From contig JALWTP010000001.1 in NCBI GenBank assembly GCA_027082835.1, positions 1 through 32,422 of the forward strand: a stretch of 32,422 nt of DNA. The letters run 5' to 3'. Under the pieces are notes generated by a model that ran no database searches, was not told where the DNA came from, and worked only from the letters and a program-made list of their open reading frames with translations. How positions within the stretch are numbered: the stretch's first letter is position 1; each line of letters begins with the position of its first letter. Position numbers and translations under genes: made by a program. The stretch is from Candidatus Kaiserbacteria bacterium. GTDB lineage: Bacteria > Patescibacteriota > Minisyncoccia > Phycocordibacterales > UBA2100. Positions 18,882-31,657 of the stretch are shown piece by piece.

Positions 18882-18932
18882 AGTTATAGTATATCAAACA
18901 TTTAATACCGGTAGAGGATATTCACATTTACT

Positions 18933-19201
18933 AACAAACAAAAAACCCGACGCTATTCGCGTAGGGTTCCTTTGTTTGTTAGTGCCGAAGGGGGGAATCG
19001 GTCACCTTTGCTAGATATTTTATTCGCGCTTCACGCTCTAAAATATCAAGCGACGCGACCCCGACGGCGCTTTCCGTCTCCGCTGTGCTACGACGGTCTT
19101 CGAGCGCGCCTCTTTTCGATTCCCCATTCAGCAACAAACAAAAAAACCCGACGCTATTCGCGTAGGGTTCCTTTGTTTGTTAGTGCCGAAGGGGGGAATC
19201 G
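18933..19201 (-). repeat. Direct repeat (18933-19000 = 19133-19201) of the tRNA-Leu 3' end plus terminator, enclosing a structured core and an inverted tRNA 3'-end copy (19115-19133)
   Basis: The 68/69-bp copies are identical except for one extra A; the core has several stems. Confidence 0.85.
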
Positions 19202-19265
19202 AACCCCCACTCCCGAAGGAATGCGATTTTGAGTCGCACGCGTCTACCAATTCCGCCACCTCGGC
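19184..19265 (-). tRNA. tRNA-Leu (CAA), no encoded CCA
   Basis: GCCGAGG...CTTCGGC A; anticodon arm TGCGA-CT CAA AA-TCGCA; variable arm TCC-TTCG-GGA; T arm GGGGG-TTCGATT-CCCCC. Confidence 0.96.
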
Positions 19266-19284
19266 AATTTCTCTATTTTTATAC

Positions 19285-19356
19285 ACTTCCGAGGAATGCG
19301 CAACTGACTATTGGGAGTCGCACACATGGTGTTTCTACCAATTCCGCCACCTCGGC
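19285..19356 (-). pseudogene. Rearranged copy of the 5' two-thirds of tRNA-Leu (tRNA-like)
   Basis: 42-bp exact repeat 19334-19375 = 19243-19284, then recognisable anticodon-stem and variable-arm pieces with two insertions; no T arm. Confidence 0.65.
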
Positions 19357-19509
19357 AATTTCTCTATTTTTATACTTTTGAAGTATATATACTCTTTCGT
19401 TTAGAGTGCTCTTATTGTACATATTTTTCTCACAATTGCATGTTACACGCACCTTCTTTCCACTTGTTCACAATTTATAAGAGAGGCAACTATGATATAC
19501 TATGCGCGT

Positions 19510-31288: not shown

Positions 31289-31359
31289 TGCCAGATCGTC
31301 TAATGGTAGGACCCGGGATTTTGGTTCCCGTTATCTAGGTTCGAGTCCTAGTCTGGCAG
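31289..31359 (+). tRNA. tRNA-Gln (TTG), no encoded CCA
   Basis: TGCCAGA/TCTGGCA acceptor; anticodon arm CGGGA-TT TTG GT-TCCCG; T arm CTAGG-TTCGAGT-CCTAG. Confidence 0.96.
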
Positions 31360-31374
31360 CATATATTCTTCAAC

Positions 31375-31398
31375 CCCCACACGGCAGTGTGGGGTTTT
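31375..31398 (+). terminator. tRNA-Gln terminator
   Basis: CCCCACAC-GGCA-GTGTGGGG followed by TTTT. Confidence 0.8.
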
Positions 31399-31657
31399 AG
31401 AATATAGCTACCAGTTTGGACTGAAAGAGCGAGTACAATTGAAGAGAGCAAGGAAACTTCTTATCCCTTGCCCACTTGTCTAGTGGTGAAAAATCGTGAT
31501 TATGCAACACTTTTACAAAAATAAAGGTGTCTGACCCCTTTTATTGACCTCTTTTATCTTTTGTTCTTCAATATTGATTTGGGATGAGCTTGCATATTGA
31601 GGGATATAGGCATAGATTAAAAGAAACTGCTCTTTAACAAACAAGGAAGGAATAGCA

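Follow-up and report, generated by a model that had tools for sequence, protein, structure and literature searches.

The window analysed here, a stretch of 32,422 nucleotides on contig JALWTP010000001.1 of a Candidatus Kaiserbacteria bacterium, comes from the assembly of a 572-kb genome that is 98% complete and held in 43 contigs. A tRNA-Leu(CAA) gene on its minus strand is followed directly by a structured repeat whose order, read on the tRNA strand, is A (the 3' end of the tRNA itself), a hairpin T and A' (the tRNA end copied in inverted orientation); next come a linker rich in purines and two hairpins, P1 (variable) and P2 (conserved), after which A recurs (Table 1). The core of this unit, taken as a whole, occupies 19001-19114 (114 nt), and it is bracketed by a direct repeat in which 18940-19000 and 19141-19201 are identical over 61 nt (100%) at a spacing of 201, spanning the tRNA from T-loop residue C56 to the discriminator together with the entire downstream hairpin T. 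Apart from a difference of a single T in a T-run, the repeat continues as far as approximately 18933/19133, and the direct copy from T-loop to terminator that the initial annotation had drawn at 18933-19000 thus stands, as 61 identical nucleotides and an extension to approximately 18933. The inverted copy of the T-loop and acceptor strand, which the same annotation had placed at 19115-19133, is likewise present (17-19 nt), and departs from a perfect complement by two substitutions and one missing base. Approximately 130 nt of non-coding sequence separate the direct repeats, and the locus, as assembled, corresponds to about 1.3 units of 201 nt; Tandem Repeats Finder reported no array at the tRNA-Leu locus, and partial second units are found at the tRNA-Trp and tRNA-Asp loci and in congeneric genomes.

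Table 1. Features of the tRNA-Leu(CAA) locus; positions are counted from the first letter of the window.
Feature	Position	Strand	Evidence
tRNA-Leu(CAA), anchor gene	19183/19184-19265	-	ARAGORN; Rfam tRNA, 58.9 bits
A, proximal: 3' terminus of the tRNA gene itself (T-loop C56 through discriminator); copy one of the direct repeat	19184..19201	-	
T, proximal: long hairpin (A-arm, GC-stem, U-arm) directly 3' of the tRNA	19134..19182	-	fold
A': inverted copy of tRNA positions ~54-72	19115..19133	-	repeat search and folds
Core, 5' half: linker rich in purines (AAAAGAG), then branched hairpin P1 (GGCGC/GCGCC around CCGUC/GACGG)	19063..19114	-	fold helices
Core, 3' half: conserved composite hairpin P2, basis of model R1	19000..19062	-	covariation
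Make-up of P2: GGUCGC...GGUGACC around GAUAUUUUA/UAAAAUAUC, with a small inner hairpin			
A, distal: repeats the tRNA 3' end directly; pairs with A' as the 3' strand of the closing helix	18983..19000	-	
T, distal: second copy of the hairpin, with a U-run one T shorter	18934..18982	-	

Folding of the tRNA-sense strand gave a minimum-energy structure of -66.6 kcal/mol (z = -4.6), as good as which none of 200 shuffled sequences proved to be, and in which P1 and P2, the two branched core hairpins claimed from the letters alone, are both present and are enclosed by a 15-pair closing helix formed by A' and the distal A. In an alternative fold (-55.5 kcal/mol; z = -10.7), A' reaches over T to pair with the end of the tRNA itself, and the two partners that had been envisaged for the inverted copy, the tRNA end and its duplicate, have accordingly both been recovered by computation. 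Hairpin T is itself stable in its proximal copy, after which comes a U-run (-29.8 kcal/mol; z = -8.0), and in its distal copy (18931-19001; -31.5 kcal/mol; z = -6.5), and its predicted form looks like that of a two-way terminator. The description of this feature as a terminator was borne out in part, in that the hairpin and the U-run are there, whereas a simple terminator scan did not call it (0 found). Other tRNA genes of the source genome are also trailed by hairpins resembling T. Further downstream, a crude detector found a terminator-like hairpin within 110 nt past the element in 35 of 80 cases, as compared with 20 of 76 control stretches, which lends weak support to a transcription unit shared by the tRNA and the element.

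A BLAST search with the core recovered seven strong and two weaker copies in the 572-kb genome, so that the core, with at least nine copies, is not unique to this locus. Each copy lies 50-160 nt (in one case approximately 380 nt) downstream of a tRNA and on the same strand, and the anchor genes are, besides Leu(CAA), those for Arg-tcg, Val-gac, Trp, Met, Asp, Phe, Leu-tag and Ser-tga; the recurrence of one core beside different tRNAs, which the initial annotation had put forward as a check of its proposal, is thus what the genome displays. At every one of these loci an inverted copy precedes the core and a direct copy follows it, both derived from the end of the local tRNA. A flank scan that covered all 37 tRNAs of the source genome added other core types in the same layout at Arg-gcg, Tyr, Lys-ttt, Leu-taa and Ser-tga, as well as truncated forms at Val-tac and Gln-ttg, and by our reading of the loci the tRNA genes that appear to carry an element number about 15 of 37, or up to approximately 40%. 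The core is modular, with P1 occurring in several unrelated versions (types a, a2, b and c) and P2 being conserved. The distal copies of the gene end are often shortened to 8-15 nt, interrupted, or scrambled in their middle. At four loci (Leu, Trp, Asp and Tyr) the direct repeats of A+T or of A+T+A' match at 100% or nearly so, and this near-identity points to what may have been recent slippage or unequal recombination between repeats.

Analyses of the conserved hairpin firmly indicated that its structure, and the strand on which it forms, have been maintained. Across 78 distinct P2 sequences, 92.9% of the cells were paired, as against 33-46% in slid controls, and 20 of the 22 pairs displayed changes on both sides (232 cells), values that 0 of 500 shuffles reached; the alignment was fitted to the model, which favours structure somewhat. 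One P2 pair is a G·U in 68 of the 78 sequences, and over the whole hairpin G·U cells outnumber A·C cells by 92 to 3, from which it follows that the helix forms on the tRNA-sense strand, either as RNA or as single-stranded DNA, in agreement with the polarity that had been assigned to the G-U pairs at this single locus. The unpaired, purine-rich linkers are conserved as well. The strong conservation of P2 sequence across families points to a putative specific binding partner, none having been found.

The dependence of the flanking sequences upon the neighbouring gene was assessed with 82 elements that have an upstream tRNA, for which tRNAs of other types (6266 pairings) served as controls. A complement of tRNA positions 54-72, with a local score of at least 13, was found in the interval between tRNA and core for the element's own tRNA in 33 of 82 cases, versus 27 of 6266 for other types; the first eight tRNA-specific bases recurred in full (8/8) after the core in 34 of 82 cases for the own tRNA, versus 13 of 6266. 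The flanks of each copy therefore derive from its own tRNA end, as had been predicted of a genuine family. Among 11 informative wobble pairs of the acceptor, A' corresponds to the Watson-Crick complement of the 3' strand in eight, to a copy of the 5' strand in two and to neither in one, which indicates that A' was templated on the 3' strand of the gene. At either end, the core gives way to tRNA-derived sequence within the universally conserved T-loop (positions 54-56), whether the loop reads TTCGA or TTCAA. Joining at TCGA in the manner of a restriction site was considered as well, and fails for tRNAs with TTCAA loops. Since A' in the window has diverged (three differences) while the A+T repeat is identical, these two did not arise in one event. 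An origin of the distal T by fold-back was also rejected, the distal T being a direct copy and not a reverse complement. A' is often long where the distal A measures only 8-11 nt, and at some loci a short A' lies behind a separate conserved hairpin, at a distance from the tRNA.

Comparisons between related genomes bear upon the turnover of the element. The tRNA-Leu(CAA) orthologues of the congeners G001 and G007 are followed directly by other sequence, with neither an element nor a hairpin T, and thereby supply the bare sites that the initial annotation had expected in relatives. Such empty sites are also explicable by loss from an ancestrally filled state. In G010 and G008 the same tRNA gene is followed by a type II core, for which the score of covariance model R1 is 19 and 39 bits, respectively, versus 99 bits in the source genome, and at tRNA-Ala an orthologous hairpin T is found both in the source genome and in G007, with A'-core-A after it in G007 only. 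The seven P2 copies of the source genome share a mean identity of 89.6% (up to 98.5%), as compared with 61-84% for the copies that other species carry beside the corresponding tRNA. The A' of tRNA-Leu bears a C-to-T change and lacks one base in the source genome and in G010 alike, although the two cores are of different types, and this suggests that the flanks may be old and bound to their locus, and the cores exchangeable. In G010, A' and the distal A retain an older T-loop state than the tRNA itself. Taken across genomes, these loci show copies that have by all appearances been gained, lost and exchanged between loci.

Model R1, which represents P2 and was built from 16 copies in five genomes of the genus, further established how widely the element is distributed. 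It matches 52 of the 121 genomes of the GTDB family, with all 11 genera represented; genomes with multiple copies occur in several genera (up to 14 matches in G009), and in the largest genus most of the R1-positive genomes have a single match. Outside the family, matches were found in 4 of 149 genomes sampled across the phylum. An examination of 20 loci from 20 other genomes of the family placed a same-strand tRNA 95-130 nt upstream in 16, the remaining four consisting of one at a contig end, two after the stop codon of the same protein gene and one after a terminator. When one genome of each species was scanned with an exact pattern, at least 117 stretches matched, mostly in metagenome-assembled genomes labelled Kaiserbacteria, Campbellbacteria, Vogelbacteria, Paceibacterota, Parcubacteria and Saccharibacteria, the few in other phyla being likely chance matches. 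R1 confirms 69 matches within these pattern loci, of which 53 have a same-strand tRNA (in one case a tmRNA) ending no more than 260 nt upstream. At the ends of protein genes (rplL and others) the last codons of the gene replace the tRNA end, and at rplL the distal copy is in frame with two synonymous differences. In all, more than 100 loci share this architecture, spread over dozens of genomes that include single-contig ones. Among 2.9 million viral contigs the P2 pattern was found in one, which R1 does not match.

Searches for a described counterpart were conducted at the level of sequence, literature and layout. Rfam 15 gave only the tRNA at gathering score, along with scattered sub-threshold matches at E <= 10, and full-text literature searches yielded no description of such an element in Patescibacteria. 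Several further candidates were tried and set aside: a self-cleaving ribozyme (no Rfam match), a group II or IIC intron (wrong size, and without a reverse transcriptase) and a DNA uptake sequence (far too few copies). In layout, the Patescibacteria repeat appears closest to the tRNA-linked repeats of Escherichia coli (rtT/RttR). Those repeats have, as far as is known, gone without an explained function for decades, their origin and role being regarded as open since the 1970s-90s. The tyrT-tyrV-rttR locus contains three 178-nt units. The last 19 nt of tRNA-Tyr recur without a mismatch at the end of each, and 10 nt of its T-loop/T-stem part recur, inverted and equally exact (GGGGAAGGAT), approximately 60 nt from the start of each; an inverted match of that length arose in 3 of 200 shuffles. 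The two systems therefore share a position directly downstream of a tRNA on the same strand, a termination in a direct copy of the last ~19 nt of that tRNA (here 18983-19000, which equals 19184-19201) and an inverted copy of the tRNA end inside the unit, and the E. coli units also reiterate in partial tandem. They differ in that no similarity of sequence or model connects them (R1 is silent in the E. coli locus, and the Rfam RtT model is silent in the window), and in that the E. coli unit follows its tRNA with no intervening hairpin, possesses a short inverted copy and is known from few loci of one genome group, whereas the Patescibacteria family has a conserved two-hairpin core, reaches up to ~40% of a genome's tRNAs and is also found at the ends of tmRNA and protein genes. 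One preprint states that the mode of action of rttR is unknown.

Other established classes of element resemble the module in some respects and depart from it in others. As in the attL/attR sites of tRNA-targeting integrative elements and in CIMEs, their cis-mobilisable relics without an integrase, a direct repeat of the tRNA 3' end, beginning in the T-loop, bounds the inserted DNA and leaves the gene intact, the second copy decays downstream, and filled and empty sites coexist among relatives; unlike them, the module has only ~130 nt between its repeats, with no integrase and no relics of element genes there, and it carries an inverted copy of the target and the same core at many tRNAs with flanks made to measure. 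With REP, BIME and REPIN-RAYT systems and with IS200/IS605 miniatures it shares a composition of gene-less, strand-specific mosaics of exchangeable hairpins at gene ends, and Y1 HUH genes are present in the same genomes; however, there is no co-occurrence at the level of the family, the palindromes flanking RAYT genes differ from the hairpins of the element, and neither REP/REPIN nor IS200/IS605 miniature families possess target-derived terminal repeats. Xer-dependent elements of the CTX-phage type offer the order of site, loop, inverted site, body and site, here a working analogy only, but the module differs from them in lacking genes, any replication module and a dif-like site, and in having a tRNA T-loop as its target. 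Finally, MITEs such as Correia elements are comparable in size, in being non-coding and multi-copy, and in having terminal inverted repeats that close a long hairpin; the terminal repeats of a MITE are its own and do not vary from copy to copy, whereas those of the module are locus-specific, being the end of the neighbouring gene, and no short target duplication accompanies them. The initial annotation had asserted that the locus fits neither an ordinary att site nor a MITE, and this held, since no integrase or relic lies nearby and the terminal repeats differ from locus to locus. Its statement that no family could be named survives insofar as Rfam offers no match, and is to be qualified insofar as the E. 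coli tRNA-linked repeats are a close analogue in layout. No described element family accounts for the Patescibacteria module, and its interpretation as a non-autonomous tRNA-anchored element, or else a tRNA-linked RNA module, of no nameable family is supported.

Genes for enzymes that might mobilise such a module were sought in the source genome and among its relatives, a co-occurring enzyme being one of the checks proposed at the outset. No match to the reverse transcriptase family PF00078 (RVT_1) was found in the source genome, and none of the 11 genomes of the genus has a TnpB-type protein (PF07282) over cut-off, one weak match below it being seen in G010. A single tyrosine recombinase (Phage_integrase) is encoded in the source genome; it is of housekeeping size (320 amino acids), and lies on contig C17, not beside the repeats. 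The distributions of Y1_Tnp and R1 agree in 10 of the 11 genomes of the genus (both in six, neither in four, elements only in G010), yet in the family as a whole Y1_Tnp occurs in 41 of 52 R1-positive and 57 of 69 R1-negative genomes, and elements are found without it in G010 (a complete genome with five matches), G042 and G016. Small GIY-YIG reading frames are present in 9 of the 11 genomes, including G001, G002 and G004, which are free of the element, and GIY-YIG was rejected as the driver; in G010, where elements are present, the only GIY-YIG match is of UvrC size. LAGLIDADG matches occur in 3 of the 11 genomes, and in the source genome the corresponding reading frame lies between the tRNA-Met element and tRNA-Asp. 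No enzyme gene among those searched tracks the element, and the expectation of an enzyme companion (no reverse transcriptase in the source genome, no TnpB over cut-off in the genus, and neither Y1 HUH nor GIY-YIG following the element) was not sustained.

These observations may be accommodated by an explanation to which we give about even credence: that the locus is one copy of a gene-less, tRNA-linked family of structured repeats in Patescibacteria, which is duplicative and free of any enzyme of its own, its mode of spreading being read from static sequences. The unit would multiply, and be lost, as DNA: its direct repeats of A (or of A+T) would recombine or be copied with slippage, and empty sites, partial units and tandem arrays would result. 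Cores would be swapped or homogenised among the loci of one genome by way of their common, T-loop-derived junctions, while the flanks would stay local, and A' would be a templated complement of the gene end, produced by fold-back copying across hairpin T. A dedicated enzyme would not be required for any of these steps. The unit would probably be transcribed with its tRNA, by analogy with RttR, a processed RNA from the tyrT operon of E. coli, and the transcript is predicted to fold into a three-way junction, the closing helix of which would mimic the acceptor/T-stem duplex of the neighbouring tRNA. Against this explanation it may be said that no insertion was caught in the act, that fold-back copying alone leaves the constant stop of A' at the T-loop unaccounted for and does not cover loci at which a short A' lies behind a separate hairpin, and that the U-run of hairpin T may stop most transcription ahead of the element.

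Several other explanations draw upon the same observations. The module might instead represent a functional non-coding RNA family, transcribed with or after the tRNA and closed by a minihelix that mimics the acceptor/T-stem; RNase P, RNase Z and the CCA-adding enzyme would then process the transcript to a stable RNA of ~150 nt, the variation seen in DNA being ordinary gain and loss of a useful gene. This we regard as unlikely, although it would account well for the strand-specific fold with its conserved G·U and 20 of 22 covarying pairs, for the constant co-orientation with tRNA genes and for the conservation of the unpaired purine-rich linkers, and although the similarly arranged E. coli unit bears the annotation of a small RNA, RttR. 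It sits less well with an occupied subset of tRNAs that varies and differs from one species to the next, and with the many copies that are truncated or decayed; moreover, a generic minihelix would be processed equally well, which leaves the locus-specific flanks unaccounted for, a distal A of 8-11 nt opposite a long A' implies that the closing helix needs little of A', and in G010 the older T-loop state of A' and the distal A means that complementarity to the tRNA has not been maintained. That the parts fell into this order by chance, or that a tRNA locus rich in repeats was misassembled, is hardly credible. The Logan contigs of two public runs do break at the repeat borders, with none spanning 19000-19255, but the layout recurs with flanks specific to each copy's own tRNA at the many loci enumerated above, and because it is also found in the single-contig congeneric genomes G007 and G010, an artefact is unlikely as a class of explanation.

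Two further proposals would assign the movement of the element to enzymes of the host. In one of them, which appears quite improbable, a miniature integrative element would use the Xer-type tyrosine recombinase of its host much as CTX phage does: the single strand of a small A-T-A'-core circle would fold up, its A/A' hairpin would mimic the double-stranded tRNA end and recombine in the T-loop, and the outcome would be A-T-A'-core-A with the old gene end downstream. That order would match the one expected after integration of a folded hairpin, both junctions lie in the T-loop, a classic place of crossover for tRNA-targeting integrases, the distal copies decay as displaced gene ends would, that of rplL still being in frame, and the genome does encode one tyrosine recombinase. 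Each copy would nevertheless require an A/A' pair made to measure, and integration at a new tRNA would first yield a chimeric, dead tRNA; the recombinase is single-copy, on another contig and of housekeeping size, neither a circle nor a replication function is known for an element of 200 nt, and the lone viral contig with the P2 pattern is R1-negative. In the other, which we hold to be very improbable, Y1 HUH transposases (of REP/REPIN-RAYT or IS200/IS605 derivation) would move the hairpins as single-stranded DNA and mistake the T-arm for their substrate. Concordance within the genus, a strand-specific fold and a cut-like junction at the foot of P2 speak for it, as does one RAYT-like gene in G005 whose flanking palindrome has a T-loop-like TTCGA loop and a GTGACC stem. 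The association nevertheless vanishes in the family, elements persist in three genomes without Y1_Tnp, and TnpB is absent over cut-off; of ten RAYT-like genes that were checked, eight have a palindrome of their own in both flanks (two have none by an exact-repeat check, one of these at a contig end), the two RAYT palindromes of the source genome occur in only two to three copies and are unlike T, P1 or P2, and Y1 transposition is not known to make a target-derived inverted copy. With no association at the family level and unrelated flanking palindromes, Y1 HUH/RAYT was rejected as the driver.

A bolder formulation of the enzyme-free, tRNA-linked repeat family may be offered tentatively, since we attach to it some but limited probability: that the elements constitute a new class of gene-less mobile DNA that brings no terminal repeats with it and re-templates them from the end of the gene at which it lands, or else a class of RNAs capped by tRNA minihelices that are processed, or even charged, by tRNA enzymes. 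As mobile DNA, such an element would acquire its inverted copy by fold-back across the hairpin and its direct copy by re-copying from the T-loop, the conserved T-loop of the tRNA would be its only address and the replication and recombination of the host its only machinery, and the tRNA-linked repeats of E. coli would be a degenerate relative.

No free-standing bacterial genomes are smaller than those of Patescibacteria, a phylum in which, to our knowledge, almost no non-coding RNAs are known. Despite a genome of 572 kb, a non-coding module of 130-200 nt stands on up to approximately 40% of the tRNA genes. If it is true that this module moves without an enzyme of its own, it would represent a new way for DNA to spread, and such enzyme-free mobility could explain the instability of tRNA gene ends; if the module is an RNA, it would disclose a large unrecognised family of tRNA-operon RNAs. 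P2, with its conserved G·U, could serve as bait for finding a binding partner, and in either case the family provides a comparative handle, in many copies, on the rtT/RttR repeats of E. coli.

Immediately upstream of tRNA-Leu(CAA), the anchor gene of the window's element, lies a dead partial copy of that same gene, recognised through a direct repeat found in a search of the window for repeats (19243-19284 against 19334-19375; 42 nt, 100% identity) that also takes in 19 nt of the upstream flank of the tRNA. In place of the D and anticodon arms, this copy carries a stretch that bears CAATAGTCAG. The same kind of partial piece is found on the upstream side of tRNA-Leu in the congener G008, and similar pieces, in which an ATAGTCA motif is substituted for the anticodon loop, are located 3' of Val-gac, Pro-tgg and Thr-tgt in the source genome of the window (G000).

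The source genome also harbors RAYT-like Y1 HUH genes, which are situated at contig ends, each surrounded by a long perfect palindrome of its own; relatives possess two to four such genes, and for eight of the ten checked, a different palindrome was found to be common to both sides. In the congener G009, the palindrome that flanks a RAYT-like gene contains GATAGTCAT; a common 7-mer hints weakly at a possible link between this palindrome and the ATAGTCA tRNA pieces. LAGLIDADG ORFs were encountered in both genomes: that of the source genome is free-standing and placed between the tRNA-Met element and tRNA-Asp, and that of G009 lies approximately 300 nt from its tRNA-Asp element.

Further features noted, with their coordinates (C, contig of G000)
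Feature	Location	Strand	Remarks
Dead partial tRNA-Leu copy (5' two-thirds)	window 19285-19375	minus	immediately upstream of tRNA-Leu
RAYT-like Y1 HUH genes (at least 2)	C30:2994-3755; C27:2-622 (oriented); C38:2-133		HFH and YxHxNP motifs
LAGLIDADG endonuclease-like ORF	C25:11447-11956		~250 aa; two LAGLIDADG_3 matches
tRNA-Gln(TTG) locus	window 31289-31470		3' hairpin, diverged inverted copy of own 3' end, GAAAGAGCGAG
Element directly 3' of rplL stop codon	L111 (contig of named MAG), module 2017-2088
E. coli rttR/TLR locus (L170)	K-12 NC_000913 1285600-1287600
tRNA-Gly ccc (hairpin behind it)	C5 8656-8727
tRNA-Gly gcc (hairpin behind it)	C17 3224-3295
Third hairpin copy	C17, about +130 after tRNA-Pro		includes CCCGCAC arm

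The stretch downstream of tRNA-Gln(TTG), which lacks P2 (the conserved 3' hairpin of the element core), resembles the 5' portion of a further element that has decayed. At rplL, the distal copy corresponds to the last four codons and stop of that gene, with two synonymous differences, and either the gene end was brought by the element itself or the live copy alone has changed. Within each E. coli rttR/TLR unit, an arrangement analogous in layout, 10 nt of the tRNA-Tyr T-loop/T-stem recur in inverted orientation without a mismatch, in addition to the known direct 19-mer; this inverted 10-mer is not known to have been described previously.

Both tRNA-Gly genes of the source genome are followed by near-identical hairpins (ACCTTTAAAAA...TTTTTAAAGGT), which are lengthened by 7-8 nt of pairing with the last bases of the tRNA. 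Given this near-identity at two tRNA-Gly genes, and the further copy at tRNA-Pro, such tRNA-3' hairpin modules therefore also appear to move or homogenise between loci of this genome.
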